A stretch of DNA of 64,000 nt from an uncultured Gammaproteobacteria bacterium. Its GTDB lineage: Bacteria > Patescibacteriota > Patescibacteriia > JAHIZJ01. Shown here in pieces: positions 6,667-32,187 of this stretch; position 1 is the first letter of the stretch, and each line of letters begins with the position of its first letter. The DNA lies in contig CAYJKP010000002.1 of NCBI GenBank assembly GCA_964371245.1, positions 257,469-321,468 on the forward strand, given 5' to 3'. Under the pieces are notes generated by a model that was not told where the DNA came from, ran no database searches, and worked only from the letters and a program-made list of their open reading frames with translations. The position numbers were made by a program, and so were the translations under genes.

Positions 6667-6782
6667 ATCTAAAACTGGGGGGCCATCCGCCTCTGGCGAG
6701 ATGGGGAAAGGGGCATGCGCCCCAAGGGTGGAGCAGGAGCGACTTGATCGCTCATGCGCAACCCGCAGGGCGCTTTGACCCG

Positions 6783-6839
6783 TGGTGCGCAACGTGGAAC
6801 GAAGTCAGAACTTGGATCCGCGATACGACCGAGTACTTT
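6783..6839. repeat. 57-bp imperfect direct repeat, copy 1 (4 mismatches vs copy 2)
   Basis: tggtgcgcaaNgtggNacgaagtcagaacttggatccgNgatacgacNgagtacttt also present at 8483..8539. Confidence 0.85.
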
Positions 6840-7023
6840 CACATACCTGACTTATCGCCGCCACCGACTACAGCGATTAAACCATATGCTATTCCCTTGC
6901 GGTAGAGCGGGTAAAGTTTCGTTACCGCAACCACTTGTGCATGCCACCTTAACCTAAAGCGTTGGTGTCCTTGTTATTACACAATAAAAGGACCCACCGG
7001 GATGGCAGGTCAGGAACGAGCGA

Positions 7024-7449
7024 CTAGACGTCGTGAACGATGTGGAGGATGTTGGGCACTTGTGTCGGGGGTTCGCCGATCTGAGCGGCAAACGCGGCGA
7101 TGAAGTGCGGCGGGCACTGTACCGTCTTCCAGTGGCAGACGAAAGCTGGACGATCTCTCAAGTCGAGGGATAGTCGTTGAAACGCGAACTTCCCGTTTGG
7201 AACACCTGCCCCATAGCTGATGCTAGTCTGTAGGTCATAGAAGCGGCGATAGTTCCGCAGGTTGAGGCCTTCAGCTTCTGCGATAGCCGCGATGATATAT
7301 TCGGCGCCGCAAATGGTGTTAGGCCCTGCTGTCGAGTGCGGAGCAATTCCGCTAAACACGCAGCATCTACCCGGAAACATGGCGTAGACAAACCTGCCCG
7401 GACCACCCTCGTAGAACGTCAGTTCTTTGAGAACCACAGGGTCTGGCAT
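7024..7449 (-). CDS. hypothetical protein, tandem paralog A (MPD... N-terminus, FSGIAP / IAEAEG motifs)
   Basis: Strong RBS AAGGAGG; ~35% identity to the adjacent upstream gene. Confidence 0.55.
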   Translation of the reverse strand: MPDPVVLKELTFYEGGPGRFVYAMFPGRCCVFSGIAPHSTAGPNTICGAEYIIAAIAEAEGLNLRNYRRFYDLQTSISYGAGVPNGKFAFQRLSLDLRDRPAFVCHWKTVQCPPHFIAAFAAQIGEPPTQVPNILHIVHDV

Positions 7450-7480
7450 ATCCCTCCTTTCTTAGGGGGTATGCGTTGAT

Positions 7481-7897
7481 CTACAGATCGAACGCGTCCC
7501 TGACCTGCCGGGGTGGATGGCCGATCTGTTCGGCAAACACCCGGATAACGTCCTCTGAGCACGTCTCCCCGATCCAGCCGGAAACGAAGTACGGACGGAC
7601 GCCCCATTCGATGTTGAGCTGCGAAAAGGCGAGTTTTCCAGTAGGTGCTTTCGCCCGTCCGTAGCCCAGGCTGGTCTGGAGATCGTAGAAGAGGAATTGA
7701 CTCGGATCAATCCCTTCGGCTTCAGCGATTACCCGGACAATCCCTCCGGCGGCATTCACCGTTGAGGTGCGATTGTGAGGCGGCGTAATACCGCTGAAGA
7801 CGATCCGATTACCCGGAAGTCTGGCATAGACGACCCGCGACGTGCCCTGATTGAAGTTGCGATACTCAGCCTCTTTCAGTACAACCGTATCCGGCAT
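7481..7897 (-). CDS. hypothetical protein, tandem paralog B
   Basis: Start trimmed to the internal ATG (MPDTVVLKEAE) preceded by RBS AGGAGGGAGAT; paralogous to 7024..7449. Confidence 0.55.
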   Translation of the reverse strand: MPDTVVLKEAEYRNFNQGTSRVVYARLPGNRIVFSGITPPHNRTSTVNAAGGIVRVIAEAEGIDPSQFLFYDLQTSLGYGRAKAPTGKLAFSQLNIEWGVRPYFVSGWIGETCSEDVIRVFAEQIGHPPRQVRDAFDL

Positions 7898-8045
7898 ATC
7901 TCCCTCCTTTCCGATGATACAGAAGTACAAGCCACAATAGGCGCAAATGTATAACTTGTCAAGGTGGACACGTACAACACGCCTCACGACACGGAGATGT
8001 GTAACTTATGTTTGATACTATTCATGCCATTCTTGCCATGCAGGA

Positions 8046-8333
8046 TCATCGCATGGTAACAAGATTCGTGTATAAGGTTTTCGAGTGAGCGTTGAGGGTC
8101 TTGCGTAAGGACAATAGGCGTGCCATCGACGGTAGACGGTGGCCACATTCCCAAGCAGAGATGGTGCTGCGATTAGAACCCAAGACACCAGCGAGTGTTC
8201 GCTGGGTCCAGCCAAGACGAAGACGGTAGCTGCGGATAGTGTTGGGATAGCGCGCTTTCGTCTTCGTAAAGCGATGAGTGAATTGTGGACCCATGTATGT
8301 CCTAAAATATATTAGGCGACTACAATCGTTCAA
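8046..8333 (-). CDS. XRE-family helix-turn-helix transcriptional regulator
   Basis: YRLRLGWTQRTLAGVLGSNRSTISAWECGHRLPS matches the HTH_3 signature. Confidence 0.7.
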   Translation of the reverse strand: MNDCSRLIYFRTYMGPQFTHRFTKTKARYPNTIRSYRLRLGWTQRTLAGVLGSNRSTISAWECGHRLPSMARLLSLRKTLNAHSKTLYTNLVTMR

Positions 8334-8482
8334 GTCCCGCTTGCTCTGTGGACAATTGGTTCAGGACGTTCCCGATGCGGTACGTCTCCCATCCTGAGTT
8401 TAGACACACAAAAACCGCTCACCTAAGCGGTTCCCTTGTCTTTATCCCCATGGATGTGTTGCCTCTGTAACGTCTCCCATCA

Positions 8483-8539
8483 TGGTGCGCAAAGTGGGAC
8501 GAAGTCAGAACTTGGATCCGTGATACGACGGAGTACTTT
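8483..8539. repeat. 57-bp imperfect direct repeat, copy 2
   Basis: See 6783..6839; lies between the OLD nuclease stop and the XRE regulator start. Confidence 0.85.
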
Positions 8540-8666
8540 GCGATTCCGAACCTGGAAGAAACGAGCAATTGCCCACCGGCAAAGTCATTATCTCCCATCG
8601 ACCCATAATCTGGTAAGTAGGGGTGAGGTCGCGACTCTGGCACGTCCTGTGGGGGATGTGAGGCAT

Positions 8667-10529
8667 CTACTGCTCGAGTTTCTTCCCGATGGCCTCCAAC
8701 CAACCAACAACCTCCTTCTTCCCACCCCGTTCATCTATCCGCCCCGGCGTCATCGCGTCAACGGCCTCTGTATTCAGCCGTCGTTTTGCCTGGCACACCT
8801 TCTTACCCCGCACTTTCTCGGTCAGGTCGTTCCATGGGGTCTTATGCGGATCGGTCGCAGCGCTATGAGTGGCTTCCGCCACCAACTCTGGGACGTTGCA
8901 GTCGTCTGTCACAGTTACACAAACCGAGAGCTTTGCCTCTATCGCTTCAGCGTGGAGGTAGTTCTCAAGTTCTCGCTTGTTCGTAATGAATGCGATTGAT
9001 CCATCGCTACGCCCGTTCACGCTGTTTGCCTCGCCTTGGTATTTTGGTGGGTCATCTGATCCTCGATCGAACAAGTGGATTTCCGGTATTCCCAAGTTCC
9101 GCAGATAATGGGCGCGGACCCAATCGCGGAGGTTTTCCCCGCCGAGAGCAATGACCGCGATACGTGGATCATTCTCGATATCCGGCAACATAGGCGTTTC
9201 GGAACGGAGGCAGCGGCTCATGCGGGTAAGATGCTGGACATCGTTTGGTCCCTCTACACAGACAAGGACGCGAACGCGGCTGTCAGGGAGTACACCAAGG
9301 TCATCGGCCACTCGTCGATAGGTTGACTCATCGCCAACTTCGATCATGGTCGTGCCGTCGACCGTACGCGTAACGTGCCGAATGCTGCATACGGGAATGA
9401 GGCCCGCAAGTCCTGGGACGTGGGTCGTGAGGATCACCTGACATCCGTCGGTCGTTGCGAGATCCTGCAGAGCTTCAACAAGCATCTTCTGATTTTCAGG
9501 ATGCTGCGAGGCTTCAGGCTCCTCGATCGCATATATGATGCTCGCTTGTCCCTTCTCAAGTCGTCGGCGTTCTGCTTCGGCACGGAAGAAACTGAGCAGG
9601 ACGAGCCGACGAAGTCCGCTACCACGCTTATTCAGTGGAATACCATCATCGCTGTCGAGTGAAAGTTTGAAAATCGAATCCCACTTCGGTTCGTTCTTGA
9701 ACTTAGGTGTGAGAGCAGAGCCGAGTCTCGGGTCGAGCTCCTGGAGCTTCTTCAAAGTACGATCTGCTACTTTGAGAACGGAATCCTGCACCTTGGTCTT
9801 CACGCGTTCTAGGTCGGACATCATCTCCGCGACGGCCTGCTTGACAGCAACCTGCATGGGATCCTGGGCTTCCGTGTCCTCGTCTGTGCTTGGCCGATCC
9901 GCACGGAAAATCGCAAATGCGGGCAGCTGCTGGGAGAGCTGCTCCCATATTGCTTTGGCATCCTCCTTGTTGAGAGGGATCTCGGTCGGTTGAAGGCGCA
10001 GGTCTTCGATCGACGACCGGATGGCAGTCCGGAGGGCGGAGTTGCATCGAAGATCAACGTTGGATGTGCCCACCTTCAAATCCGAAGCACGCTTCTTCAG
10101 ATCGGTGTTCTTCAGAAGAAGGAGATCACCGGCACCCTGGGCGGTCGGGTGAAGTGCCGCGGCCCAGAACCCCCGGTCAGCCACCTTCCCGTCCTTACAC
10201 TCGAAAACCCTATGGATCTCAAGATCTCCATCCGCATTGAGAAGTAGCTCGGCTGAGAGCGTGGTCGTGGCTGTGGCATCGATCACCACCTTGTCGGGGA
10301 GCTCAGTAAAGATGCAGGCAATCCGAACCTCATGATCCGCCGCGTGGACACACTTGTCGCCAGCGTCAAGCTTCAGATTCGGAGCGCCCAAGAAAATTCC
10401 GATGGCGTCGAGGATGCTCGATTTACCAATGTCGTTCTTGCCCACGAGGGCGGTGAGGTCATCGATGGGTATTAGCGTATTGCCGCGATAACCGCGGAAG
10501 TTCTGTAGCTTTACGGCCTTTAATTTCAT
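8667..10529 (-). CDS. OLD-family ATP-dependent endonuclease (N-terminal ABC-type ATPase + C-terminal Toprim), stand-alone
   Basis: Walker A GKNDIGKSS, Walker B IIYAIEEPEASQHP, H-loop ILTTHVP; Toprim-like VLVCVEGPNDVQH ... AVIALGGEN ... LFDRGSDD. Confidence 0.7.
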   Translation of the reverse strand: MKLKAVKLQNFRGYRGNTLIPIDDLTALVGKNDIGKSSILDAIGIFLGAPNLKLDAGDKCVHAADHEVRIACIFTELPDKVVIDATATTTLSAELLLNADGDLEIHRVFECKDGKVADRGFWAAALHPTAQGAGDLLLLKNTDLKKRASDLKVGTSNVDLRCNSALRTAIRSSIEDLRLQPTEIPLNKEDAKAIWEQLSQQLPAFAIFRADRPSTDEDTEAQDPMQVAVKQAVAEMMSDLERVKTKVQDSVLKVADRTLKKLQELDPRLGSALTPKFKNEPKWDSIFKLSLDSDDGIPLNKRGSGLRRLVLLSFFRAEAERRRLEKGQASIIYAIEEPEASQHPENQKMLVEALQDLATTDGCQVILTTHVPGLAGLIPVCSIRHVTRTVDGTTMIEVGDESTYRRVADDLGVLPDSRVRVLVCVEGPNDVQHLTRMSRCLRSETPMLPDIENDPRIAVIALGGENLRDWVRAHYLRNLGIPEIHLFDRGSDDPPKYQGEANSVNGRSDGSIAFITNKRELENYLHAEAIEAKLSVCVTVTDDCNVPELVAEATHSAATDPHKTPWNDLTEKVRGKKVCQAKRRLNTEAVDAMTPGRIDERGGKKEVVGWLEAIGKKLEQ

Positions 10530-10684: not shown

Positions 10685-12634
10685 CTAGCGCAATACCACC
10701 TTGGTCCGTTCAAGAAAGGCTGCCAGTTTTGCCTTAAGCCGGCGATCGGTGGGTCGATGCCTGCTGCGCTCCCAATCCAGAACCGTGCTTGGATCAACCT
10801 CCAGCTGTCGGGCAATGTCCGCGTGGGAGAGGCCGAGCCGTCTTCGGGTCGCCCGGAGCTGCTCTCCAATCGTGGACCCGATCTCTGTAGGTTCGTAGCC
10901 TAGGAACCGAATCACTCCCGGGATCGCCCGGAGGTTTGGGGTAGCGGTTCCGACCTCCCAGTTATGGACCGTGGTCTTATCGACGCCGATCCGCAACGCA
11001 ACCTCCCGCTGGAGAAGTCCGAGGTCCAAGCGACGTTTTCGAACGTGGTCGCCGATCGACCGGAGTTCCGTAGGATACGCTCTATCAATGGGTTTCGGCG
11101 TTCGGAGCACGAGATCACAAAATGGCAACGCAGGGGTGACGTTGTGTTGCCCTTTTGTGACGACTTCCGAAGCCGAAGGGAGGTAGCAGAGGTGTATTTC
11201 GACGTCGCCTTTCCCAATCACGATCCGTTCGACGATGTGCTCCACGATCTGTCGCCGGTCTTCGACCGCCAGGGTGGACCATCGGGAATAGAGGTCTTTG
11301 GCCTCGGTCAGGATCTCATCTCGGGAGAGGTACTGGATCTTGAGGAAATCGACGTCTCCCTGGAGTTGTGGGAGCTCTTCCTCGATCTGCTTGAGACGCT
11401 CTTCGAGGGGGCGGTACTGCCTGCCGTACCCTTCGACGGTGATCGCGTCGCTCATATAGGCACGATGGACTTTATCCATCTCCCGGACGACTCGGTCCCG
11501 CTCGGTCTCCATGGTCTGGAGGGTCTCCTCCTTCGCTTTGATCTCCTGGTCGGCCTGGCCGAGGTGTGCCGCGATGTCCTCCGGGGAGAAGAAGAATCCC
11601 TTGAGCTGCTCCTCGAAGACGGTTTCGAGGTCCTCGATCGGGATCTTGTTGCGGCACTTCTGGCAGCCGTACTTTGTCGTCTTCGTGAGGACGTACATCT
11701 TCTGACCGCAGAAGCAGAAGACGAGACCGGCGAAGAGATGGACCGGCTTCTTCGCCTCGCGTTTGCCGTTCCGTCGCCGCTCATCGAGAATCGCGTTCGC
11801 CTGGAGCCAGATTTCTTCGGAGATGATTGGCTCGACTGGAGTTAGGACCCATTCATCCTGCGGCTTGAGCTTCCAGTTCTTCTTCTCGCCGAGGGACTTC
11901 GTGTAGTTCGCCCGGCGGATCCCCTTGGCCATCGGGTCCCGCAGAAGCCGGTCCACAGTTGTATCCGAGAACTTCGAGCCGTTCCGGGTCCGGTAGCCCT
12001 TCTCGTTCAGAAGCCGCGCTACGGCCTTCTTGCGTTTGTGCTCCAAGAAGAGTTCGTACATGAGCTTGCGGACCGGGGCTTCTTTCGGATCCGGGACGAG
12101 CTCCCGATTCTCCCATTGGTAGCCGAAGGGAGCGGCACCGCCGAGGGGCTTGCCGAGTTTCGCCCTGACGGGCACGGACGCCGCCACCCGTTCGGCGATC
12201 TCCTCCCGTTCCCACTGGGCCATCGCCGCGACGACCGTGAAGAAGAGCCGCCCAGCCGGGGTCGAAGTGTCGATCGCCTCCGAGAGGGAGATGAGGTCCG
12301 CCTCGTGATCCCGGAAGATGTCCGCGAACTCCAGAAGCTCTCGGGTGTTTCGGGCGAGCCGCGCGAGCTTCGAGAAGATGAGCGCCGTGATGTGACCACC
12401 TCGGATGTGCTCAAGCATTCGCTCGGTTTCGGGAAGCCCCATGACAGACTTTCCGGAGACCGCTTCGAGGTGGTAGACCTCGCGGACCCGCCAGCCTTTG
12501 GCCTCGGCATACATCCGCGCCCGCTTCTCATGATGTTCAGGACTTTCACCCCTCGCTTGGTCCTCGGTCGAGACGCGGATCCAGATCCCGACCTGCCTTT
12601 GAGTCTGCGGTTCTTCCTTTTGCTGCTTCTTCAT
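10685..12634 (-). CDS. large serine recombinase (resolvase/invertase catalytic domain + recombinase domain + zinc ribbon + coiled coil) fused to two C-terminal XRE HTH domains
   Basis: IWIRVSTEDQ catalytic Ser motif; CFCGQKMY...CQKCRNK zinc ribbon; C-terminal RKRRLDLGLLQREVALRIGVDKTTVHNWE and RRRLGLSHADIARQLEVDPSTVLDWE HTH repeats. Confidence 0.8.
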   Translation of the reverse strand: MKKQQKEEPQTQRQVGIWIRVSTEDQARGESPEHHEKRARMYAEAKGWRVREVYHLEAVSGKSVMGLPETERMLEHIRGGHITALIFSKLARLARNTRELLEFADIFRDHEADLISLSEAIDTSTPAGRLFFTVVAAMAQWEREEIAERVAASVPVRAKLGKPLGGAAPFGYQWENRELVPDPKEAPVRKLMYELFLEHKRKKAVARLLNEKGYRTRNGSKFSDTTVDRLLRDPMAKGIRRANYTKSLGEKKNWKLKPQDEWVLTPVEPIISEEIWLQANAILDERRRNGKREAKKPVHLFAGLVFCFCGQKMYVLTKTTKYGCQKCRNKIPIEDLETVFEEQLKGFFFSPEDIAAHLGQADQEIKAKEETLQTMETERDRVVREMDKVHRAYMSDAITVEGYGRQYRPLEERLKQIEEELPQLQGDVDFLKIQYLSRDEILTEAKDLYSRWSTLAVEDRRQIVEHIVERIVIGKGDVEIHLCYLPSASEVVTKGQHNVTPALPFCDLVLRTPKPIDRAYPTELRSIGDHVRKRRLDLGLLQREVALRIGVDKTTVHNWEVGTATPNLRAIPGVIRFLGYEPTEIGSTIGEQLRATRRRLGLSHADIARQLEVDPSTVLDWERSRHRPTDRRLKAKLAAFLERTKVVLR

Positions 12635-12644: not shown

Positions 12645-15600
12645 CTATTTCTTGTCGCCCTTCAGGCGTTTCATAGCCTTGGCGATCACCTGGGAGACCG
12701 CATCTCGTTTGGCGGTCTTGTCCTGCTCCGTAACCGACTTATACTTCACTTTCACTTTGTAACCGCGAACCGTCCCAGATGTGCTCGCGGCTTCAGCCTC
12801 GATTCCTTCGAGCACCGCGAACGCCTCCTCCGGAGTCGAGAAATGCACGCGCTTCAATTCATCTTCCGAGAGAGTATTCGCCGCGAGCTGTCTGATCTTG
12901 GTCAGCGCCTTCTTCTCGGATGACACGACCACGATTTGCTCGAATCCGGCCGCGAGGCACTTCTGTACATTCCCGAGTTCGTGGTCCGGTGTCGTCGTGA
13001 CCGCGATCTCGCAGGCGACAGATCGGTCGCCCTTCCGCAGGGCCACGTCCACGCTTCCGAGTCCGTCGAGGATCTTCTCCTCGATGGTTGCCCGCCACTC
13101 CCGAGACTCGGCCCAACGCTTCAGGAGTTCCTGCAGATACTTGTGCTGCTGACCACCCCGACCTGGAGTTGGTATAGCTGACGGCGGCAACTGGGGTGGC
13201 TCCGCCCGCTTCGGTCGTTCGGTACTGGTTGGCGTCGGGACCGGCGGGGAAGGTGCGAGGATAGTCGCGCTCTGCGGGACGGGCTCGGCAGGTCGGACCG
13301 GGACCCGGCCGGGAACGGAGCGCTGAAGGATCGCCTCGATCTCTTCCCGCCTCATCGCATACTTCTCGCGCGATTGGGAAATGACCGCATTCCTGCGGCT
13401 GCGAGCCTCTTGAGGATCGACCTCAGCAAGCCTCGGAGTATCGAGGTTGAAGTCGAATTCCGCCCGTTCGACCCTGGCGATGGCCTGGCCGATTCCGAGG
13501 TTCTGGAGGTCCTTGGCTTCATAGGAGGCGAAACCTTCATTGAGGGTACGGGCGTCCTGATCGCCCACCCGGAAACAGATCCTGGTATATGGATTCGACA
13601 GCACGGAGCTCAGAACCTCCGGGCTCTTGCTCCCGATTTGCCGGAGGTCCTGATGCGCCAGGACCAGACCCAGCCGGTACTTGCGCGCACCCGAAAGGAT
13701 CTGCTCCATCGTGGGCGTGACGAAGTTCTGAAATTCGTCGATGTAGACGTAGAATGGCCGGCGTTCAGCTTCAGCCACCTCCTGGCGGCTCATCGCTATC
13801 TGCTGAAGTTTGGAAACGAGGAGACTGCCAAGAAGATGCGCGTTCTCCTCGCCAATCGCACCTTGGGAGAGCCGGGCGAGGAGGATCTTCCCCTCATCCA
13901 TCATCCGGCGGAAGTCGAGCCGGTCATCCTTCTGCGCGACCATATATCGGATGAGTTTGGGTCGGAGAAACGTGTCGAGACGGGTGAGGATCGACGCCTG
14001 AGGATTCCCTTTGAGGAGCTGGAACTCCTTCTGCCAGTAGTACACGACGTCCGGATCACGGACGGTTGCGAGGAATTCGTCACGGAAACTCTTCTCCACG
14101 AGGAACCGGCGAAGATCGACGAGAGTGCCGCCCCGGTCGCTTTCGAGGAAGGCGAGGATCGCGTTCCCCAGAACCGAGGTCATCTGATCGCCCCACGAGG
14201 TGGAGAGCCTGCGGAAGACAGCGGCAAGATCGGAGGAGAGAAGCGTCTTTTCGAGCTCGGAGTGCGCCGAGAGTATGTTGAATCCTACCGAGTATTCGGT
14301 ATCGGCGGGATCGAAGAGGATGACGTCATCGATCCGCTCTTCCGGCACTCTCTCCAGGATCTGGTCGATGAGGTCCCCGTGCGGGTCTAGGACGGCGACA
14401 CCCTGGCCCGTCTTCAGATCCTGGAGGATGAGATTCAGAAGGAGCGTGGACTTGCCGGTGCCCGACGCACCGATGACGTACATGTGTCGGGACCGTTGAT
14501 CGGGAGTGAGTGCAACCTCCACGGTCTTTCCGGCATGAGCGTTTATGCCGAGAAGGAGCCCGGAACCTGTTGCGATCGCCGGCGCAGCCCGCGTCTTCCG
14601 TTGCTCGCGCTTCAGTTTCTCGACGCGGACCGAGGCCGAAGGCGGGTGAACCAAGGAGACGAGCTCCTCCGTGTTCAGAATCATTCCGCTCCGGCGGGAT
14701 CGCCGAAGAATGAAATCCTCCATGTGATCGGTGTTCTCGTACCCGTCGTTCGATAGTGGGATGAGCTCGTTTCCGGCCGGATTCCCGAAGGTCTTGAGGC
14801 TTCCACCGATGGCCCGGGCGAATTCCCAGACCCGTCCCGGATCGGGACTGGTGACTCCGAGCCTGACCACAGAGGCGAAGAGAGGGTGCGCAACCTTCGC
14901 CTTGGCCGCCGCCGCGATCTCGGGTGCATCGAAGAAGAAGGGGTTCCCCTCATCGTCCAGGGCCGAGTTCATGATGCTCTCGGCCCATGCATGCCGGACC
15001 GGCTGGAAGAGGATCTGCAGGACGGCGATCTCGCCCTCCTCGAGATCGGAAAGGGCCGACGTGACTCCGATCAAGGGGTCGATGTCGAAACCCTTGAAGG
15101 TCCGGAGCGGCAGCATGAATTCCCTGGAGAGCCCGAAGTCCACGATGATCGTCTGAGCTCCCTCAAGCTCGGCCCACTGGGACAGTAGGAATTCGGGTTC
15201 GCTGGTGATGACCACTTCGGGGAAGTGGCCTTTGAGCTGCTGGGAGATCTTGGAGGCGTCCTGTTCCCGCACCGCGACCTGGATTGTGATGGAATCCGGG
15301 AGGCCGATGACCTCATAGGAGAGCGGCCCCACGGCGACGGGAAGACTGCGCAGGAACTGCTCGACTGCTTCCCGGGCGACCTTGAACGGGGGTGGAACGG
15401 AGAGCCGCAACTCGGCGATCGGGAACTCATCCTCCAGTGCATCAGGTTCGGGCTCACGCACGTCGGCGATTGGCGCGTCGTCTGTCGGGGAGGTTCGTGG
15501 CTGACCCGTTACCAGGCTCCGAAGTCCGTCGGTGAGATTGCTGAGCAGGGTTGGCCTGCGGCCGTCATCGACCTTGGATCGGATCGGTGGGACCCGGTGC

Positions 15601-19500: not shown

Positions 19501-19720
19501 CCTTCCGAAATGCTTCATCGACCGCGTCGCCCGGGAGATCGGGGTTCAGTCGCGTCAGCGCGGAGCGAAGGCGATCCTCAAGGATGACCTGGCTGTAATC
19601 GGACCTTTCAGAGCTCGGTTCCCCCGGGGCCATGTCTGGACCGAATCGCGTGCCGTAGCCAAGCCCATCAAACCAGATCAGCACGGCGTCCTCTACTTCA
19701 GATTCGATGAATTTCGTCAT
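16580..19720 (-). CDS. hsdR: type I restriction enzyme R subunit HsdR
   Basis: HsdR N-terminal domain ([22 protein letters not shown]), SF2 helicase motifs ([15 protein letters not shown]), C-terminal T1RH-like region. Confidence 0.9.

Positions 19721-21671: not shown

Positions 21672-21672
<1 letters not shown>
19717..21672 (-). CDS. unknown 651-aa protein embedded in the type I R-M operon, C-terminal double TM anchor
   Basis: Overlaps the hsdS stop by 1 nt and the hsdR start by 4 nt; no P-loop; two C-terminal TM helices; occupies the PrrC/RloC position. Confidence 0.5.
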
Positions 21673-22956
<1,284 letters not shown>

Positions 22957-22973
<17 letters not shown>

Positions 22974-24507: not shown

Positions 24508-24713
24508 GGATTCACTCCGTATTCTGGGTGCGTCCTTTGTTAGTAGCACGGAAATTGGGAGGGCCTCCGCACCCTCCGGCATATTAGTTAATGTATTGCA
24601 GCCCAACGTATTAGCGCCCTTTACAGTACAAGATTCCGGGCCATTCGTCAAGCTAAACTCCTGCTGTAAGTTACGAAGCCGGAGACTGCACATGGGGCAG
24701 TCTCCGGCTGAGA

Positions 24714-25442
24714 TCAGAGCGCGAGCGCGCTCCGAAAGGTGCTGGAGAGCCTGAGCCCAGAGTCCATTTGGATCCTGGGGCTTCTGGATTTCTGGACCTC
24801 GGTGAAGGCATTGAAGAGCGACCAGGCAGTTCGAGGAATGAACTCTCCGTGAGTCGGTTTCTCCCATGCTTCGATCACCTTCGGCAGGTTCGAGGCCGGG
24901 AGGACGTTCCTCCGAACGGCTTCGACCATGAGATGGTCGGCCATCTCTGGCGAGAGACCCCGTTCCTTCATTGCCGCGATCTCTCCGTGGATCCGGCTCT
25001 GCATCGACGAGACCTTCGAGAGCATCCGGTAGATCAGGTCGGGGAGATCCCGGAACACGTTGATCGTGTGCTTCCGCGCCGCGCCGACTTCGCCCGAGAA
25101 GGCAAGGTTGTCACAGCAGAAGACTCGGCTTCCCGCGACCAGACTCACCGAGAGGGACCGGTCGTAGGAGTTGCGAAGCCCGATGGCGAGCGCGTAGTCG
25201 GGATGACCCCCACCGTTCGTACAGGTTAGGACCCCGAACATCTGGAGCCCTTCGTGCGCGAGGCCGAACCGCTGCTCTGTGATCGTGAGCCCGAAGCGCG
25301 GAATGTGCAGCTCGACCTCCTCGACGAACCGGGCATAGGGTACCGGCACGTACGAATCGGTCTCCTCGGGAACCGCGACGGCTGCGAGATCGACTTTGGT
25401 CGCCTCCCAGCCGCCACGATGCAGGACAAGCTGACCGGACAT
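24714..25442 (-). CDS. hypothetical protein (mobile-element associated; possibly DUF932-like)
   Basis: 242 aa, no clear motif; located between the recombination module and the R-M operon. Confidence 0.3.
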
Positions 25443-25463: not shown

Positions 25464-25892
25464 TCAGAGGAGCAGACCTTTCTCTCGGAAGGACAGGAAC
25501 GAACCGTTCCCGCCCACGATGACGTGATCGAGGACGTCGATCCCGACGAGCCGTCCCGTGTCCACGAGCCGATTCGTGATCTCGACGTCGTCGTCCGAGG
25601 GACTTACGTCTTCGGACGGGTGGTTGTGCGCGAGGATCATCGCGGCGGCGGAGGCCACGATGGCCGGCCGGAAGACCTCGCGAGGATGAACGATCGAGGC
25701 CGAGAGGCTTCCCACCGAGACTGTCTCGATGCCGAGCACCGTGTGGCGGCTCGTGAGGAGCACGACGATGAAGTGTTCGCGCTTTGCGTCCTTGAGCGAG
25801 CGCGCGAGGAGCTTCGCAACATCCTCGGGGCGCGTGACGGCCGGTGGTTTCTTCCCCCGGTAGTGACGGGTCCGCAGTTCGGCGACGTACAT
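25464..25892 (-). CDS. radC: RadC-like JAB/MPN domain protein
   Basis: AHNHPSEDVSPSDDDVEITNRL matches the JAMM HNHPSG motif; start trimmed to MYVAELR preceded by RBS AGGAGGA. Confidence 0.7.
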   Translation of the reverse strand: MYVAELRTRHYRGKKPPAVTRPEDVAKLLARSLKDAKREHFIVVLLTSRHTVLGIETVSVGSLSASIVHPREVFRPAIVASAAAMILAHNHPSEDVSPSDDDVEITNRLVDTGRLVGIDVLDHVIVGGNGSFLSFREKGLLL

Positions 25893-25997: not shown

Positions 25998-26759
25998 TCA
26001 TTCCCCGCGCCACGATTGGCAATGGGCAAAGAACTCGCACTCCGAACACTTCCAGGAGGGGTTCGGGAAGAAGGAGCTACCACGGATCGCGAGGGCGACG
26101 CTCTCAATCAAGCGCGCGGTCCAGGCGAGATCCTCGACCGTGCGAGAAGCGGGAAGGCGTTCCAGTCGCGGGACCTTGGTCTTGAGGAGGGCGTCGATGC
26201 GGAGGGGTGGGATCTGGCCCGTCGCAAGGAAGCGGACAAGCGCATACGTTGAGAGCTGGAGATGCCGTTCGAGGCTCCCGGTGTCGAAGGTCCGAGCGGC
26301 GGTCTTGAGTTCCACGAGCGTGCCGTCCGTCTCGATGAGGTCAATGACGCCGCGCAGGCGCACGTCGAGCACTTCACCCGTCTCGGGATCGACGAGGTCG
26401 ATCTCGAATCGGTCCTCGATGAGCTGCGGCAGCGTCCCGTCGACCTGCTCGGCATAGAGGCGGACGAGATCCCGCCCCTTCTCCCCGAGGATCTCTTTCG
26501 ATTCCTTCGCGGGGAAGACCACGGGCTCGAGGTTCTGGGCGAACCAGTCCGCGTCGAAGACCTTGACCACCGCCTCCGGGTCGGGCGTGCGCCCGGCGAA
26601 CCGTTCCTTCTGGAACCACTCGATGGCGGCGTGAACCGACGATCCGAACGCGAGCGCGGCGGCTCGCCACGGCGGCGGGATCCGGTCGATGTACTGGAAG
26701 CGGTACTTCAGGGGGCAGAAGAGATACGACTGGACCCGGCTAACGCTGAGCGGCTCCAT
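25998..26759 (-). CDS. PD-(D/E)XK exonuclease, Cas4/RecB-like with C-terminal 4Fe-4S cysteine cluster
   Basis: D...ELK core (DLIETDGTLVELKT); N-terminal C (YLFCPLKY) plus C-terminal WKCSECEFFAHC Cys cluster, as in the Cas4/AddB nuclease family. Confidence 0.65.
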   Translation of the reverse strand: MEPLSVSRVQSYLFCPLKYRFQYIDRIPPPWRAAALAFGSSVHAAIEWFQKERFAGRTPDPEAVVKVFDADWFAQNLEPVVFPAKESKEILGEKGRDLVRLYAEQVDGTLPQLIEDRFEIDLVDPETGEVLDVRLRGVIDLIETDGTLVELKTAARTFDTGSLERHLQLSTYALVRFLATGQIPPLRIDALLKTKVPRLERLPASRTVEDLAWTARLIESVALAIRGSSFFPNPSWKCSECEFFAHCQSWRGE

Positions 26760-27417
26760 CGGGAACCTCCTTCAGGAGCCGGTCGATCGCATGAGTCGCC
26801 TGGAGCTTCGTCACCTCCTTGAGCGAGACGACGCAGAGATAGTTCTTCAGGTAGTCGTGCGCCGCTTCCCCTTGGAGCCCTTGGCCGGCGAGGATGCGGA
26901 AGAGGTAGCGGCGCTGCGCCTCGGTCATCAGGACGCCGTTGCCGTTCCCGCCAGCCTGGGGGGCTTGCGGCATCGGACGGGTCTCACTTGGAACCGGGTA
27001 CTCTTGGACGGACGGTGCACCCGATCCGAGGTCGTGACCATTCGCGGCGAGACCATCGCTGTCCAACTCCTCGAAGGAGACGATACCGATGTTCACGGCA
27101 TCACGGAGAGCGCGGGCCTTCGCCCGGGTCTCGGCCATGCGGATCAGGTGTGGGACGATGAAGGAGTTCACGTTGTCGGGACAGGCGTCGCCGATCCCTT
27201 CGAACCGCCCCTTCGTCGTCTCGACGAGCGCTTTCGCGATCGCCATGCGGCCATTCTCGTCGGAGGGGATCTGGAGAAGTTTCGTCGCGACCCGCTGCAA
27301 GCCCTCGTCATGGGCTTTCGAGAGCAGCCCCGGGTACGTGACGACTTCCTTGGTCCCGACCACGCGGCCGGTGCGGTCTTTGATCTCGATCGTGCGGATG
27401 AGCTCAACTGGTTTCAC
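26740..27417 (-). CDS. phage single-strand annealing protein (RecT/Red-beta-like), GTG start
   Basis: Partner of the adjacent exonuclease; MAETRAKARALRDA helix reminiscent of RecT family; GTG start chosen because of the AAGGAGG RBS. Confidence 0.4.
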   Translation of the reverse strand: MKPVELIRTIEIKDRTGRVVGTKEVVTYPGLLSKAHDEGLQRVATKLLQIPSDENGRMAIAKALVETTKGRFEGIGDACPDNVNSFIVPHLIRMAETRAKARALRDAVNIGIVSFEELDSDGLAANGHDLGSGAPSVQEYPVPSETRPMPQAPQAGGNGNGVLMTEAQRRYLFRILAGQGLQGEAAHDYLKNYLCVVSLKEVTKLQATHAIDRLLKEVPDGAAQR

Positions 27418-27534
27418 TTCTGAACCTCCTTTGTGAAGGAACTGGTGGGAAATGAGAGAGGAGCGAGAGGGTGTTCCCATCCTTCACGATACGGAGGTCC
27501 GGAGGTTGGCCGTAGAGAGGGAGAGGTTGCGGAG

Positions 27535-28062
27535 TCAGCTCTCCTTGGGGATGGCGATCTGCCGTACGGCGAGGGCAACCGCGAGCGCGTCAAACATGTG
27601 AAGCCAATACTTGTCCTTCGGTTTGAATCCGAGCACCGGATGCGGCGGATCCTTCGGGAGCTTCACCCGGAGATCCTCAAACCCCATCTGGACGATCGCC
27701 CGAGCGACGTCGAGCTTTCTTGCGTGTGCATTGCCGACGACGATTCGGCGGACTTCGCGGGGCGAGAGCTCATAGACACGCATCCCGAGATCCCGCGAGC
27801 GGGCATGAAGCTCCTGCGCGATGACGGAGACAAGGGCAGCGCGTTTGGTCGGGAAGAGCAGCGGCTTCTCGATTCCGACGATCGCGGGCGCATACTCCTC
27901 GATGTACGAGAGCACGACCCGGCGGGCCTGATCGATCAGGTCGCGCGGACGGTCGCCGTTCTTGAGGGTGTGAACCCCGAGCGCGAGCAGGTCACGGCCG
28001 CGAAGAACGACCGCGCCCATCTCTCTCGTTCCAGGGTCAATACCAAGGATGACTGGGTGCAT
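27535..28062 (-). CDS. RuvC-like Holliday junction resolvase (phage type), paralog 1
   Basis: ILGIDPG (catalytic Asp), VGIEKP (Glu), HMFDALAVALA C-terminal acidic motif. Confidence 0.65.
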   Translation of the reverse strand: MHPVILGIDPGTREMGAVVLRGRDLLALGVHTLKNGDRPRDLIDQARRVVLSYIEEYAPAIVGIEKPLLFPTKRAALVSVIAQELHARSRDLGMRVYELSPREVRRIVVGNAHARKLDVARAIVQMGFEDLRVKLPKDPPHPVLGFKPKDKYWLHMFDALAVALAVRQIAIPKES

Positions 28063-28230: not shown

Positions 28231-28728
28231 TCAGACGCTCTTCGCCTGGTGATGGAGAGCGAGCGCGATCGCGTCGAACATGTTCTGGAAATACAGCTCC
28301 TTCCACTTGCGGTCTTGGGTGAGGTAGACGCGGAGCGCCGGAAACCGGTGGCCAACTGCGATCGCCGTCTCCTTCTTCGTGGCCCAGCCGTTTCCGACGA
28401 GAGCCTTGCGGACGGTCTGCGGCGCATAGGTGGTCACGGGCAGCTTCTCCCTCCGGCCGAGTCGACGGACGGATCCAGCGAGCTTGTCGAGCGCGTTGAG
28501 CCAGGTCACGGGATGACCATGTGTGGCTTCGAGAACGAGGATCCCCGGCCGGTACGCCGTGATCCAGGTGGCGACAAGCTTTCGGGCTTCGCGGAGTCGG
28601 CGCTCCTTCGGGAGCAGGCGCAGAGGACGGACGCCGCTCGCGATGAGCCGAGAGCCTTTGAGGACCGCGAAGCCGAGATCGCGGAGGCCGGGGTCAAGGG
28701 CGAGGATTGTTTGGTGCTTCATGGGCAT
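28231..28728 (-). CDS. RuvC-like Holliday junction resolvase, paralog 2
   Basis: ILALDPG, LVLEAT, NMFDAIALALHH; same architecture as 27535..28062. Confidence 0.6.
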   Translation of the reverse strand: MPMKHQTILALDPGLRDLGFAVLKGSRLIASGVRPLRLLPKERRLREARKLVATWITAYRPGILVLEATHGHPVTWLNALDKLAGSVRRLGRREKLPVTTYAPQTVRKALVGNGWATKKETAIAVGHRFPALRVYLTQDRKWKELYFQNMFDAIALALHHQAKSV

Positions 28729-29245
28729 GGCGTTTTAGTAAGTAAAGGAAGAGGGCAGTGCGTGAACGCCGGATCTCCTGTTGCGGAACCGCGAGCGTTC
28801 CGGCAAGCGCGCGGCGTAAGGTCTCGTCAGGGTAGCTGGCGATCGCTTCTTCCAGCGCGTCAGTGTCCCGCTTCTCCCCGAGCGAGCGGGCGAGCTTCTC
28901 CGTCGTGAAGGCGCGCGGTGGTCCGGCCGGAACCTCCAACGCATCGGGCGCATGGGAAGACCGTTTCATGCGGACCTGGATGGTTCCGTTCGTCCGCCGG
29001 GCCTCGATATATCGGTGCTTTCTGAGATGGCCGAGCCAGCTTCGGATCGTCCCTTCCGGCAGCCCCATCGTCCGGGCGAGCTCGGAGGATTCGACCGCCA
29101 GAGTGTCGCTGCCCGGGGACAGGCGCGAGAGAAGAACGAGGTATAGCCAGACGGCGGCGCGCATCCGATGGATGTGGAGCGCCTGCGGGTGTTCGAGGAT
29201 CCCTCGGTCGAGGTGAATGATGTTGGGAGTTGGATTGCGGGTCAT
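28694..29245 (-). CDS. winged-helix DNA-binding protein (regulator/replication-initiator-like), paralog 1
   Basis: wHTH-like N-terminal half; shares a C-terminal motif (IRRSRTALFLYLLKRHAHE) with the adjacent paralog. Confidence 0.4.
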   Translation of the reverse strand: MTRNPTPNIIHLDRGILEHPQALHIHRMRAAVWLYLVLLSRLSPGSDTLAVESSELARTMGLPEGTIRSWLGHLRKHRYIEARRTNGTIQVRMKRSSHAPDALEVPAGPPRAFTTEKLARSLGEKRDTDALEEAIASYPDETLRRALAGTLAVPQQEIRRSRTALFLYLLKRHAHEAPNNPRP

Positions 29246-29862
29246 GGGTGGTCGTTGGTATTCACGATGAGATAGCGGAAGAAGGCGAGTCGTGACTTGC
29301 GGATTTTCTCCGGAGGAGTGTTCCGGACGCGGTCGAGTACGCGGAGAACGTGCGCCTCGGAGTATCGTTTCAGGATCGCCGGGAGTTCCTCGTCCGCGCC
29401 TGCACCTAGAATCTCGCGGGCGAGCTTGAGCAGCGCCCCTTCCCCCGCGCCCCCTTCCCCGATAGCTATTGCCGTATTGTCTGAAGACTTCTTATTGCTG
29501 CTATTGCTATAGCTACCTTCTAAGTGTTGCCCGGAAATAGCAGGGCGATTGCTCGGAAGGTCTGCTCCCCTTGGCACTTCGCCAGACCATGACCGCAGCC
29601 GCGCGACAAGGTAGGGAAAAGGTGACTGCACGCGAACGAGTTTCGCTTCGATAAGCCGGGAGAGCCATGCGGCGATTTCTGATTCGGACACGCCGAGCTC
29701 ATCGACAAGCCGCTCCTGCGTGCGGATTACGGTTCCGCCGTAACTCGCGTGACGCATGAGCGCTACATAAAGCCAGAGCGCGCGACCGATCGACTGGACG
29801 CCGTTTGGAACGGCGATCACAGCATCGAGAGCGCAAGTGGGAATCGGGCGGAGAGTGGTCAT
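29242..29862 (-). CDS. winged-helix DNA-binding protein, paralog 2
   Basis: Same architecture; C-terminal IRKSRLAFFRYLIVNTNDH. Confidence 0.4.
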   Translation of the reverse strand: MTTLRPIPTCALDAVIAVPNGVQSIGRALWLYVALMRHASYGGTVIRTQERLVDELGVSESEIAAWLSRLIEAKLVRVQSPFPYLVARLRSWSGEVPRGADLPSNRPAISGQHLEGSYSNSSNKKSSDNTAIAIGEGGAGEGALLKLAREILGAGADEELPAILKRYSEAHVLRVLDRVRNTPPEKIRKSRLAFFRYLIVNTNDHP

Positions 29863-30137
29863 CCGTCTCGGGGATTAGCATCTCGATCATCGCGCGGTCG
29901 GAAATAGAGGTTGCCGTAGAGCGACTCGGTGAGCGTGCCGAGGCCCCGTGCCAGACGGAAGACGTTCGGAAGGTTCGGCAATCGCCGGCCCCGCTCCCAA
30001 GATGAAATGATGCAGCGGCCCTTGCCGACAAGCTGCCCGAGTCCTTTCTGGGTGAGACCGGCCTTCAGCCGATACTCGCGTATTCGATTGGGGAATTTGG
30101 CGCGGGAATGGGTCCGGCGCAGAGTGTATTCGACCAT
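29859..30137 (-). CDS. XRE-family HTH transcriptional regulator (cI-like repressor candidate)
   Basis: Start trimmed to MVEYT; REYRLKAGLTQKGLGQLVGKGRCIISSWERGRRLP HTH; paralogous to 8046..8333; divergent from the integrase operon. Confidence 0.65.
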   Translation of the reverse strand: MVEYTLRRTHSRAKFPNRIREYRLKAGLTQKGLGQLVGKGRCIISSWERGRRLPNLPNVFRLARGLGTLTESLYGNLYFRPRDDRDANPRDG

Positions 30138-30295
30138 GTACTCAAGATACCGACCCGAACGAAAACCGAACAGAGGGGGAAAGGTGCATAACCCATCACA
30201 TCCTGTGGATACCGGAGAAAACGCCCATAAAACGCGCTGGATTTGGCACCTCTCCCCTCCTACGGAAACGGATCCAGGTATGGGATTGTAAGAAC

Positions 30296-30541
30296 ATGGA
30301 AGTCGCAGATTATGAACGCGAAGACGACCTGAATCGCGAACCGATCCAGGCTCGGCATCCGACCGGCGACGCCGCCGGTCTATGTCCGCTATCTCCCGAG
30401 GAAGTGAGCGCATTCCGGGAGATCATGCGGGAGGAGACGGGTGTGGATATGTCCGAAACCGAGGCTTGGAACCGGGCGATCGAACTCATTGCGCTTTTCC
30501 GAATGCTGATCGGCCCGATGCCTGAAGACCCCGAAGGTTAG
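30296..30541 (+). CDS. small acidic hypothetical protein (cro/excisionase/anti-restriction position)
   Basis: 81 aa, D/E-rich; divergent from the XRE repressor; immediately upstream of the serine integrase. Confidence 0.35.
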   Translation: MEVADYEREDDLNREPIQARHPTGDAAGLCPLSPEEVSAFREIMREETGVDMSETEAWNRAIELIALFRMLIGPMPEDPEG

Positions 30542-30624
30542 CGGCGTTTTGGCGTTCGAACGTCGTCCCCACTTGCGCGTTTCCGAACTTAAAGAGAGAA
30601 TTGCGTTTAGCCAACCATACACCC

Positions 30625-32187
30625 ATGCCTTCCTACGTCATCTATGCCAGAAAATCCACGGAGTCCGAAGACCGCCAGGTGCTTTCTATCGACTCCCAGA
30701 TCCGGGAGCTGCAATCGCAAACTGCTCGGCGCGGTCTTCGTGTTGCCGAAGTTCTGACGGAGTCGCATTCCGCGAAGGCCCCCGGGCGTCCGGTATTTGG
30801 GGCACTCATGCGGCGCGTCCGGCGCGGCGAGATTCGTGGGATCGTCTGCTGGAAGATGGATCGGCTGGCGCGCAATCACCTCGATACCGGGTCGATTCTC
30901 CAGGCACTTGCCGACGGCCAGTTACAGGAGGTCATCACTTCCGATCGCACCTATACCCGAGACGGCAATGACCGGTTCATGGGTTCCTTCGAGTTCGGCA
31001 TGGCGACGAAATTCATCGATGACCTGCGAGCGAACGTCCGGCGGGGCAACCGGGCGCGGTTTCGACGTGGATGGCCAAACTATGTGCCGCCACTCGGTTA
31101 TCTAAATGACAAGGCCACCAAGACGATCATCAAGGATCCGAAACGCTTCGACCTCGTCCGAAGAATGTGGGAGCTACTTCTGACCGGTGCCTACCGCCCG
31201 GATCAGATCTTGGGAATCGCCAACGAGAAGTGGGGATTCCGGACGCGCAAGTTCAAGCGCTACGGCGATTGTCCCCTTCCGCGAAAGATACTCTATCGCA
31301 TATTTGGAAATCCGTTTTACATGGGGCTCATCCGCCTGCGGTCCGGCGAGACGTTCGCTGGTGCCTTTCCTCCGATGGTTAGCCGCCAGGAGTTCGACCG
31401 CGCTCAGGAAATCCTTGGCCGTGCTGGGCGGCCCCGTCCCAAGCGCCATGAGTTTCCCTACACCGGGATCATCCGATGCGGCGGCTGTGGCGGCGCGATC
31501 ACAGGTGAAGAACACTACAAGAGTTCCGGCAGACGCTACGCCTACTACCACTGCTCACGCCGACGGGTCGGAACCGACTGCCACGAACCCTCGGTCTCCG
31601 AGCGGGACCTTGAAGCCCAGATCCTCCACGTCTTGGAACGGCTCACAATTCCGGAACGCGTCATCACTTGGATCCTGAAGCAAGTCACGCAATCCTTCCA
31701 ACTCGAAGACGATCGTCGGCAGGAAGCCCAGCGATCTCTCGCGGACTCCCTTGCCTCCGTTCAGCGGGAGCAGGAGAACCTCGTCACAATGCGCCTTCGG
31801 GACATGGTCACCGACGACATCTATACGGCCCGGAAGCACGAGATCGACGAGCGCAGGGCGCGATTGGAGGCCCAAATCGCCGCGCCTCTCCGCTCGCCGG
31901 AGGAGATTCTTCAGTATACGAACACGACCTTCGCATTCGCTTCGAAGGCGGTTGATGTATTCCGCTCAGGAACGGGAGTTCAGCGGCGGATGATCTTGGA
32001 AGCCGTAGGTTTGAACTCGGAGCTGCGAGCCAGAAAACTGCTAATGCAACTGAAGAATCCGTTCCAGATGATCGCTGATGCAGGCTCTAGTAGCGACTGG
32101 TGCCCAGGGCGGGACTTGAACCCGCACCCGCTTTCGCGGCTAGGCCCTCAACCTAGTGTGTATGCCAATTCCACCACCTGGGCGTAG
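30625..32187 (+). CDS. large serine recombinase (integrase); computed ORF reads through the 3' end of tRNA-Leu
   Basis: YVIYARKSTESEDRQ catalytic Ser motif; recombinase domain; CGGCGGAI...YYHCSRRR zinc ribbon; coiled-coil C-terminus; last ~30 codons overlap the tRNA. Confidence 0.8.
   Translation: MPSYVIYARKSTESEDRQVLSIDSQIRELQSQTARRGLRVAEVLTESHSAKAPGRPVFGALMRRVRRGEIRGIVCWKMDRLARNHLDTGSILQALADGQLQEVITSDRTYTRDGNDRFMGSFEFGMATKFIDDLRANVRRGNRARFRRGWPNYVPPLGYLNDKATKTIIKDPKRFDLVRRMWELLLTGAYRPDQILGIANEKWGFRTRKFKRYGDCPLPRKILYRIFGNPFYMGLIRLRSGETFAGAFPPMVSRQEFDRAQEILGRAGRPRPKRHEFPYTGIIRCGGCGGAITGEEHYKSSGRRYAYYHCSRRRVGTDCHEPSVSERDLEAQILHVLERLTIPERVITWILKQVTQSFQLEDDRRQEAQRSLADSLASVQREQENLVTMRLRDMVTDDIYTARKHEIDERRARLEAQIAAPLRSPEEILQYTNTTFAFASKAVDVFRSGTGVQRRMILEAVGLNSELRARKLLMQLKNPFQMIADAGSSSDWCPGRDLNPHPLSRLGPQPSVYANSTTWA
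32098..32183 (-). tRNA. tRNA-Leu(GAG), long variable arm
   Basis: GCCCAGGTGGTGGAATTGGCATA...CTAGGTTGAGGGCCTAG...GGTTCAAGTCC...CCTGGGCACCA. Confidence 0.8.

Follow-up and report, generated by a model that had tools for sequence, protein, structure and literature searches.

The window analysed here is a stretch of 64,000 nucleotides of contig CAYJKP010000002.1 (assembly GCA_964371245.1), and all coordinates given without a prefix refer to it. It contains an integrated mobile element of 23.6 kb (8483-32097; 23,615 bp) in a chromosome of Patescibacteria (candidate phyla radiation, CPR). When an older remnant adjoining it on the left (6783-8482) is added, the total is 25,315 bp. The right end of the element is occupied by the gene of a large serine integrase (30625-32187, plus strand), here in its integrated state, which reads into the tRNA-Leu(GAG) gene (32098-32183, minus strand). 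The latter was detected by both ARAGORN and Rfam, is intact with encoded CCA, directly follows rplS and represents the host target, contributing the B' arm of the attachment site. Genes from 7024 to 30137 all lie on the minus strand; only the integrase gene and an 81-aa open reading frame (ORF) upstream of it (30296-30541) lie on the plus strand. An initial annotation, made from the sequence alone, had proposed an acquired, integrase-borne island at tRNA-Leu with nearly all genes on the minus strand, a divergent pair of helix-turn-helix (HTH) repressor and integrase at its right end and two large serine recombinases (30625-32187, plus; 10685-12634, minus). This description is upheld, the acquisition itself by the split integrase with its displaced tail, by a relative lacking about 24.7 kb, by deviating GC content and GC content at third codon positions (GC3), and by core modules found elsewhere. 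The right edge drawn at 32187 overshoots, since the tRNA gene is host DNA.

The integrase possesses Resolvase, Recombinase and Zn_ribbon_recom domains (PF00239, E 1.3e-17, residues 13-157; PF07508; PF13408). Its catalytic motif YARKSTES includes a serine, S11, that is nearly invariant in 63 homologues. Search at E<=1e-20 retrieved 2647 homologues, the best 120 of which are 52-70% identical, and the consensus of their C-termini reads '...KNPF..IA.AGS.S.W[CW]....DVRTW...EYF.LPDL...'. Residues 1-491 of the window integrase are native. The protein departs from the family consensus exactly at W492, whose codon TGG (32098-32100) is at the same time CCA of tRNA-Leu(GAG), and continues as CPGRDLNPHP..., so that its last 28 codons are antisense tRNA-Leu. 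The ORF had been described as running through the 3' part of the tRNA gene; it does run antisense, but crosses the whole gene before its stop codon at 32185-32187.

The conserved tail that is missing from this protein (WCA.W.EVRTWIRDTTEYF...) was found at the far end of the block, on the strand of the integrase gene and in two copies only. The inner copy, P'2 (8483-8608, plus strand), consists of 41 codons WCAKWDEVRTWIRDTTEYFAIPNL... (8483-8605) with a stop codon and forms attL of the main element. The outer copy, P'1 (6783-6905, plus strand), consists of 40 codons WCATWNEVRTWIRDTTEYFHIPDL... (6783-6902) with a stop codon and forms an outer attL. When residues 1-491 are joined to either tail, the resulting protein of 531-532 aa scores 915 bits with 520-524 of 531 family-profile positions aligned, whereas the tRNA-fused form as it stands scores 876 bits with 494 positions aligned; each tail adds about 40 bits. 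The displaced tail and the higher score of the rejoined protein thus place attP inside the last part of the integrase gene, whose own last 40-41 codons are found at the opposite end of the element, and they identify 32098-32103 as attR and 8483 and 6783 as attL-type junctions. The reading of the integrase ORF into the tRNA gene is the attR junction and no quirk of ORF calling. No interruption is seen in the integrase ORF, in either tail ORF or in any core gene. As to the att repeats that the initial annotation suggested searching for, long direct repeats are absent; the 57-nt tail pair is the sole informative repeat, and the hexamer TGGTGC, core of attR at 32098-32103, is common to the junctions at 6783-6788 and 8483-8488.

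Structure of the native C-terminus was considered on the AlphaFold model of homologue P0007 (66% identical; mean predicted local distance difference test score, pLDDT, 86). Residues 492-505 of this model form a helix (pLDDT ~88-90), and long antiparallel helices at 344-419 represent a coiled coil. W492 and R500 are invariant in 60 sequences with native tail. Top Foldseek matches of the model are SPbeta, Bxb1, PhiC31 and LI integrases, with E down to 2e-20.

Position of the crossover was estimated from eight attL/attR pairs. Within the range from -20 to +24, a single dinucleotide position is common within every pair, namely positions 5-6 when the junction codon's first base is taken as position 1. 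These positions correspond to nucleotides 72-71 of the tRNA and in the window to GC at 32102-32103, 8487-8488 and 6787-6788. Judged from the shared dinucleotides, strand exchange by the large serine integrase probably takes place at nucleotides 72-71 of tRNA-Leu(GAG). With the crossover at this place, discriminator base and CCA of the tRNA would be supplied by the element, from the W492 codon. Encoding of CCA is indeed altered by integration in two related loci: tRNA-Gln of L085 gained it (CTG to TGG; L085:120, 11003), and tRNA-Ser of L102 lost it (TGG to CTG; L102:57, 8439). Other placements of the crossover were rejected. The sequence 'agtagcgac' of locus L172 (see below) could be accounted for by an exchange 9-11 nt upstream of TGG, but no in-register dinucleotide is common to attL and attR from -21 to -1, and with an out-of-register 'CT' version of this exchange, hand comparison puts the rebuilt integrase out of frame with the family tail. 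An exchange within TGG is contradicted by L062, L085 and L102, in which attL and attR differ inside the codon.

P' arms resemble the 3' end of their own target tRNA. P'2 is identical to its own tRNA at 14 of the first 18 positions, and the mean number of identities over 18 positions is 11.1 in own pairs of P' and tRNA and 8.0 +/- 2.1 in mismatched ones. Most tail copies write their invariant 'VRT' as GT(Y) (A/C)GA AC, which gives GAAC at +26-29 in P'. In antisense orientation, the T-loop of the tRNA gives GAAC at +21-24 in 38 of 40 loci, 5 bp less far out than in P'. A motif for the zinc-ribbon domain that sits 4-5 bp further out in attP than in attB is a hallmark of large serine integrase sites (10.1101/2025.01.03.631226). 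By eye, no conservation is seen in the B arms downstream of the tRNAs, and most of the target specificity is probably carried by the tRNA half-site. The predicted attP junction is GCAGGCTCTAGTAGCGAC-TGGTGC-GCAAAGTGGGAC, in longer form ...GATGCAGGCTCTAGTAGCGAC TGGTGC GCAAAGTGGGACGAAGTCAGAAC for the main element. For the composite element, the predicted attP would consist of the left arm of the main element followed by TGGTGC GCAACGTGGAACGAAGTC, and the restored attB would read ...CTCTGTAACGTCTCCCATCA TGGTGC CCAGGGCGGGACTTGAACC.

Similar organization, at other tRNAs, occurs in dozens of uncultivated bacteria. Our comparison set comprised 82 related loci with 68 complete integrase ORFs, 40 of which overlap the antisense 3' end of a tRNA gene. 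The targets of these 40 are tRNA-His (12), Asn (10), Gln (6), Ser (3), Glu (3), Arg (2), Trp (2), Leu (1) and Tyr (1); integrase P0031 (59% identical), for example, reads into tRNA-Arg(TCT). An in-frame TGG coincides with CCA in 29 of the 40 loci, while the other 11 tRNA genes have no encoded CCA, and the reading register is one and the same. Six further elements of 5.9-10.9 kb (L045, L052, L062, L085, L102, L103) have the displaced tail at their far end on the same strand. The core from the DUF932 gene to the integrase gene is found with 40-82% protein identity in L023, L024, L027-L029, L031, L032 and L078. Identity of core genes is 60-82% in related loci whose cargo is different. Cargo of these core-sharing loci differs and comprises TIR proteins, nSTAND3/Mrr and DUF6119; L179 contains the same core genes according to Pfam, with KAP NTPase and AbiE as cargo. 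GC-rich elements are found in hosts of lower GC content (0.605 vs 0.507, 0.589 vs 0.396, 0.651 vs 0.584), as would be expected of elements that retain their own composition when they move between different hosts. Such GC mismatch was seen in L031, L038, L023 and the window, and it is largest in L038 (up to 19 points).

In the window, GC content is 0.592 in 8483-32097 and 0.517 and 0.513 in the two flanks. In 1-kb windows, mean GC is 0.592 for the island (23 windows) and 0.514 for the flanks (37 windows; Mann-Whitney p = 8e-10), and GC3 is 0.59-0.85 in island genes compared with 0.51-0.69 in host genes. The remnant (6783-8482) has a GC content of 0.532, near the host level. GC is therefore higher inside the island, as had been claimed, but the sharp step placed at 6675 does not exist; the true rise starts at about 8.6 kb. 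As defined by the sequence, the outer junction is at 6783, that of the main element at 8483 and the right one at 32098-32103. The 'double terminator' reported at the left end is reduced to a single one, for the hairpin at 6640-6659 passes a terminator scan, while that at about 6596-6625, recognized by eye, fails the T-tract criterion. Both junctions were seen in over 20 contigs, derived from over 10 samples, and a 252-kb contig (51x coverage) covers the whole island. The integrase also occurs on another contig of up to 1.18 Mb. Recurrence of the junctions across contigs and samples indicates that the block is not an assembly artefact. Named homologues of the adjoining 122-aa membrane protein belong to Patescibacteria or Candidatus Kerfeldbacteria, with the exception of one weak match in Candidatus Omnitrophica. 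Rfam search over 5500-33000 detected tRNAs only.

A nearly empty site is present in a related species (loci L172 and L173), the flanks of which are 79-91% identical in nucleotide sequence and have the same gene order. The distance from the membrane gene to tRNA-Leu is 725 bp there, and sequences corresponding to 6638-6982 and 7390-32088 of the window are absent. The empty site suggested by the initial annotation, with tRNA-Leu directly adjacent to the membrane gene, was not found in pristine form: most of the block is lacking, but a gene of 140 aa and a 9-nt integrase scar sit between the two genes. The scar, 'agtagcgac' (L172:7085-7093, L173:2054-2062), adjoins tRNA-Leu and equals the last 9 nt of the P arm of the window integrase gene. 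It looks like a trace of imprecise loss. An 18-nt filler preceding it in L172 has no match in the window. Synteny is lost around more distant relatives of the membrane protein, and exact protein matches of both flank genes were found only in island-carrying contigs. The contig of a metagenome-assembled genome that was retrieved with the Gmad2/Germane flank protein ends before reaching the island.

The region between P'1 and P'2 contains two tandem paralogous genes (7024-7449, 141 aa; 7481-7987, 168 aa) and an HTH_3 (XRE) gene (8046-8333), all on the minus strand. The single gene of the relative (L172:6464-6886) lies in the same place as the paralogues and appears to be a hybrid of them: its 3' part resembles the 141-aa gene, and its 5' part and promoter resemble the 168-aa gene. 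Its 140-aa product is 60% identical to the 141-aa protein of the window, and at about 70% nucleotide identity the gene is far more diverged than the flanks. The HTH_3 gene product shares 44-53% identity with the repressor of elements of this family. We read 6783-8482, with P'1, the two paralogues and the XRE gene, as the remnant of an older element of the same family that has lost its integrase. A terminator-type hairpin at 8413-8432 (minus strand) was likened by eye to a hairpin downstream of tRNA-Leu in the relative, where a hairpin followed by 'tgtaacgt' resembles 8405-8473, also by eye; local alignment did not return it. In our reading, DNA to the left of 8483, including this hairpin on the side of the B arm, predates the main element. 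The composite structure proposed in the initial annotation is thereby retained, by virtue of the two P' sites (6783, 8483) and the remnant repressor and not by virtue of the second serine recombinase, which is cargo with no att sites found for it.

Gene content of the island was examined by Pfam on 28 ORFs of the region and by PHROGs on 10 core ORFs (ORFs of at least 80 aa). The conserved family core lies next to the integrase gene. It comprises, on the minus strand, genes for DUF932 (24714-25442), RadC (25464-25892), a PD-(D/E)XK nuclease (25998-26759), a 246-aa protein (26740-27480), two RuvC-like proteins (27535-28062 and 28231-28728), a DnaD-like protein with HTH_36 (28694-29245), a replication-initiator-like HTH_36 protein (29242-29862) and the XRE repressor (29859-30137), which is divergent from the integrase gene. 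The 81-aa ORF upstream of the integrase gene matches no family and is kept in eight related loci; it may be a candidate excision cofactor or regulator. Strains of the same population vary within the island. Gene calls in the RuvC-like region are 161/198 aa in L016 and L018 vs 175 aa in L013, and the specificity subunit HsdS of the restriction-modification system described below has 425 vs 431 aa in the same strains.

The remaining genes, also on the minus strand, are in part of defence type. A 620-aa ATPase with AAA_15/AAA_21 domains (8667-10529) resembles AriA, OLD and GajA and represents defence-type cargo. HsdR (16580-19720; REase_I, 1123 bits by Pfam/PADLOC), HsdS (21672-22973; Specificity_I, 5e-85) and HsdM (22957-24867; N6_Mtase, 6e-111; 22957-24693, 578 aa, in public gene calls) are encoded together and constitute a complete type I restriction-modification system. 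Between hsdR and hsdS lies a 651-aa ORF (19717-21672) with no match in Pfam, PADLOC or NCBIfam, and a 236-aa ORF (15788-16498) likewise has no family match. The second large serine recombinase (10685-12634) has Resolvase and Recombinase domains fused to two C-terminal XRE HTH domains, and no close homologue was found in related loci. A role in a shufflon or phase variation was considered for it and rejected, as no convincing inverted repeats surround hsdS.

A 1044-aa coupling-protein-like NTPase (12645-15779) resembles VirD4/TraD. It contains DUF8128 and TrwB_AAD_bind (2e-9), matches mad8 of PADLOC and scores 58 bits with NCBIfam conju_CD1115 against a cutoff of 250. Assignment of this NTPase and of the 620-aa ATPase to MADS was rejected because the matches are partial and lie below the family cut-offs, mad8 reaching 73 bits in the P-loop region and NCBIfam MAD3 28 bits against a cutoff of 420. 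Relatives of the NTPase, 25-39% identical, are present in five loci with integrases of the family (L038, L039, L059, L078, L152). From this recurrence, the NTPase might be part of the backbone, for instance for DNA transfer, and not random cargo. Neither relaxase nor VirB4 nor components of type IV secretion systems were detected in the island, several ORFs of which have no match at all. Virion structural, packaging and lysis families were likewise found by neither Pfam nor PHROGs. The element is integrative, probably replicative and possibly mobilizable, and it ferries defence genes; it is not a prophage in our view. With several defence systems aboard, it accounts for about 2% of the genome, the size of which is roughly 1.2 Mb.

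The observed junctions suggest the following mechanism. The integrase would recombine attP, at the 3' end of its own gene, with the 3' end of tRNA-Leu at nucleotides 72-71. The integrated gene would thereby come to end in 28 antisense-tRNA codons and its native tail would be moved to the far end of the element, whereas the tRNA would stay intact. Excision would rebuild the integrase of 531-532 aa together with an intact attB. Recombination between attP and attB would presumably be catalysed by the reconstituted 531-532 aa form. The C-terminus of SPbeta integrase contacts the excision factor (10.1101/2025.01.03.631226) and was called part of a directionality 'toggle'. It may be speculated that exchange of the conserved C-terminal helix changes directionality of the present integrase or its response to an excision factor. 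The rplS gene has a promoter-like site upstream of it, and on the minus strand the tRNA gene is not followed by a terminator-like hairpin. Antisense read-through from rplS and tRNA-Leu into the integrase gene is therefore plausible and might, as a further speculation, damp integrase expression once the element is integrated.

Taken as a whole, the interpretation that this is a mobile element with an older remnant beside it, whose integrase-internal attP recombined with the tRNA gene at its 3' end, has in our estimate a probability of about 0.8. Several observations weigh against it. Neither an excised circle nor a pristine attB was found, and all four members of the integrase cluster have the fused 520-aa form. 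Viral contigs contain no match to the attP junction. All sampled contigs of the population (22-23) carry the element, so that its present mobility is unproven. The site in L172/L173 is, with its 140-aa gene and 'agtagcgac', not a pristine attB. No clear mirror of GAAC is seen by eye in the P arm, and P'1 is located left of the putative old tRNA terminator, which is not the order expected from simple tandem accretion. Finally, the native tail is intact in about 28 of the 68 homologues, which have no tRNA within 10 kb and some of which are on contigs of 0.4-1.3 Mb; a simple integration model does not predict this either. Some of these points would suit a fixed and immobile relic, that is, a vertically inherited defence island with an integrase pseudogene truncated by integration. 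Occurrence in every population contig, absence of an excised form from databases and the scar of 9 nt agree with such a relic; the scar, present in a relative about 10% diverged, suggests that insertion may predate the split of the two lineages. The adjoining remnant shows that elements of this kind decay here. We nevertheless regard it as unlikely, given that the integrase ORF, both tail ORFs and the core genes are all open, that GC content is still 8 points above that of the host, and that the integrases of 40 related loci are likewise fused to a tRNA, this being the normal state after integration.

A temperate prophage could account for the divergent XRE repressor and integrase and for the RuvC-like, PD-(D/E)XK exonuclease, DnaD-like and replication-initiator-like genes, all of which match PHROGs families. 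It is improbable on several grounds: no capsid, portal, terminase, tail or lysis family is present among ORFs of at least 80 aa, and a tailed phage would not fit into the 6-11 kb of related elements. Moreover, no relative of the integrase above 38% identity was found in IMG/VR, and the integrase is at most 25% identical to any protein in 50,697 phage records (at most 30% in 72,556 plasmids). The element may instead be a satellite that uses the capsid of a helper phage. That the read-through is a chance extension of the ORF, with attP outside the integrase gene and the left-end tails unrelated to it, would be in line with the many homologues that have intact tails in chromosomal contigs and with the location of attP outside the coding sequence in most characterised serine integrases. 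Yet each tail raises the family-profile score by about 40 bits, both begin with the hexamer of the tRNA end, 40 loci show the same geometry and register, and six more elements have both of their ends visible; chance extension is thus very improbable. Hardly any weight can be given to an assembly chimera in which GC-rich foreign DNA was joined to a CPR contig. The source is metagenome-assembled, there is a GC difference of 8 points, and the core genes have their closest relatives on GC-rich contigs that do not look like CPR, but the junctions were assembled independently in many samples and by different assemblers and display a precise att structure.

For the integrases with intact tail, an explanation compatible with recombination at tRNA genes can be offered. 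Those of L024 (410 kb), L178 (1.33 Mb) and L179 (864 kb) are 65-70% identical to the window integrase and have no tRNA within 10 kb; they are followed by host-like or cargo genes, namely by GGDEF and ABC transporter genes, by genes for a LexA-like protein and a transposase, and by KAP NTPase and AbiE genes, respectively. Tandem accretion, in which a newcomer inserts between the resident integrase gene and the tRNA gene so that the older integrase becomes capped by the newcomer's tail, would explain them. Within 10 kb, however, neither tRNA fragments beside intact-tail integrases nor a direct example of accretion (intact integrase gene followed by a tRNA-fused one) were found. No related contig has a terminal overlap, and there are no circular contigs among the relatives.

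Some loci contain extra P' copies downstream of intact integrases, 0.6-5 kb apart (L033:6011, 6692, 11609; L034:7886, 10930; L059:4070, 4814). L035 has two divergent integrases, with P' copies at 7869 (plus strand) and at 3944 and 565 (minus strand). The P' arrays of L033, L034, L035 and L059 suggest repeated accretion or cassette-like turnover.

The organization described here shares features with several known systems. Streptococcal elements of the integrative and conjugative type (ICEs) and of the integrative and mobilizable type (IMEs) that have a single serine integrase and target rumA possess an attachment site inside the integrase gene, the 3' end of which is exchanged on integration (PMC4701971, Ambroset et al. 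2016). As in the present element, one end has a short repeat within the target gene, the other end has it within the gene of the serine integrase, and the cargo is integrative and not of phage type. In the rumA elements, the target is a protein-coding gene that is altered, both reading frames being changed, whereas the tRNA target remains intact here. Further differences are that a conserved tail of about 40 aa with a confidently modelled helix is displaced in the present element, and that its integrase family hits tRNAs of at least nine amino-acid types. With SPbeta SprA, Bxb1, PhiC31 and Listeria A118/LI integrases, the protein shares the architecture of Resolvase, recombinase and zinc-ribbon domain with coiled coil. 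Its sites share with those of characterised large serine integrases the 2-bp crossover, the lack of long repeats and the outer motif lying about 5 bp further out in attP. Identity to these proteins is only 16-18%. Their attB sites lie in protein genes or between genes and their attP outside the integrase gene; here, attB is the acceptor/T-arm of a tRNA, attP lies inside the integrase gene and the left half-site is not conserved.

tRNA genes are classic targets of tyrosine integrases. Insertion at the tRNA 3' end, a tRNA that remains functional, an integrase gene beside it and a tRNA-like far end are common to the present element and to tyrosine-integrase islands of the Islander type. Unlike in the latter, the enzyme is a serine recombinase and the identity block is 6 bp long instead of a displaced tRNA fragment of tens of bp, with P' being tRNA-like only (14/18). 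Archaeal integrases of the SSV type likewise have attP inside the integrase gene, target tRNA genes and leave parts of the integrase gene at opposite ends of the element. These enzymes are tyrosine recombinases encoded by archaeal viruses and plasmids and are inactivated by the extent of the split; in contrast, only the last ~8% of the integrase is displaced here. Serine integrases were not known to use tRNA genes in the 2014 Islander survey (PMC4383910), and the word 'tRNA' is absent from a systematic catalogue of serine integrases from 2022 (PMC10083194). In the open-access literature, we found no report of serine integrases targeting tRNA genes. While an integrase-internal attP is already known from rumA ICEs, tRNA targeting across a whole family is the most interesting part.

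It is tempting to generalize from these loci, and we do so tentatively, with the odds somewhat against us. They may represent a large clade of serine integrases, not described so far, for which the universally conserved 3' acceptor/T-arm of tRNAs serves as the specific half of attB and which exchange strands at nucleotides 72-71, have attP inside the integrase gene and employ the helix swap as a built-in state switch. GC-rich, defence-laden elements would be moved by them among very different hosts, including CPR, and would pile up at tRNA genes. A serine clade with at least nine amino-acid types of tRNA as targets and a fixed nucleotide would fill a gap beside the tyrosine integrases. As serine integrases are tools of genome engineering, a half-site formed by the tRNA acceptor/T-arm and combined with an arbitrary second half could give landing sites in many organisms, and integrases of this kind would be a natural test case for half-site retargeting. 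A C-terminus that is changed at each integration would likewise be a natural experiment on control of directionality. Mobile elements of Patescibacteria are poorly known, and the finding that the closest relatives reside in GC-richer genomes that do not look like CPR bears on gene flow into this group.

A second GC-rich patch is present in the window at 56000-61100 (GC 0.55-0.61). It consists mostly of minus-strand ORFs without Pfam match, lies about 2 kb from tRNA-Leu(TAA) (62914-63000) and is possibly another acquired block.

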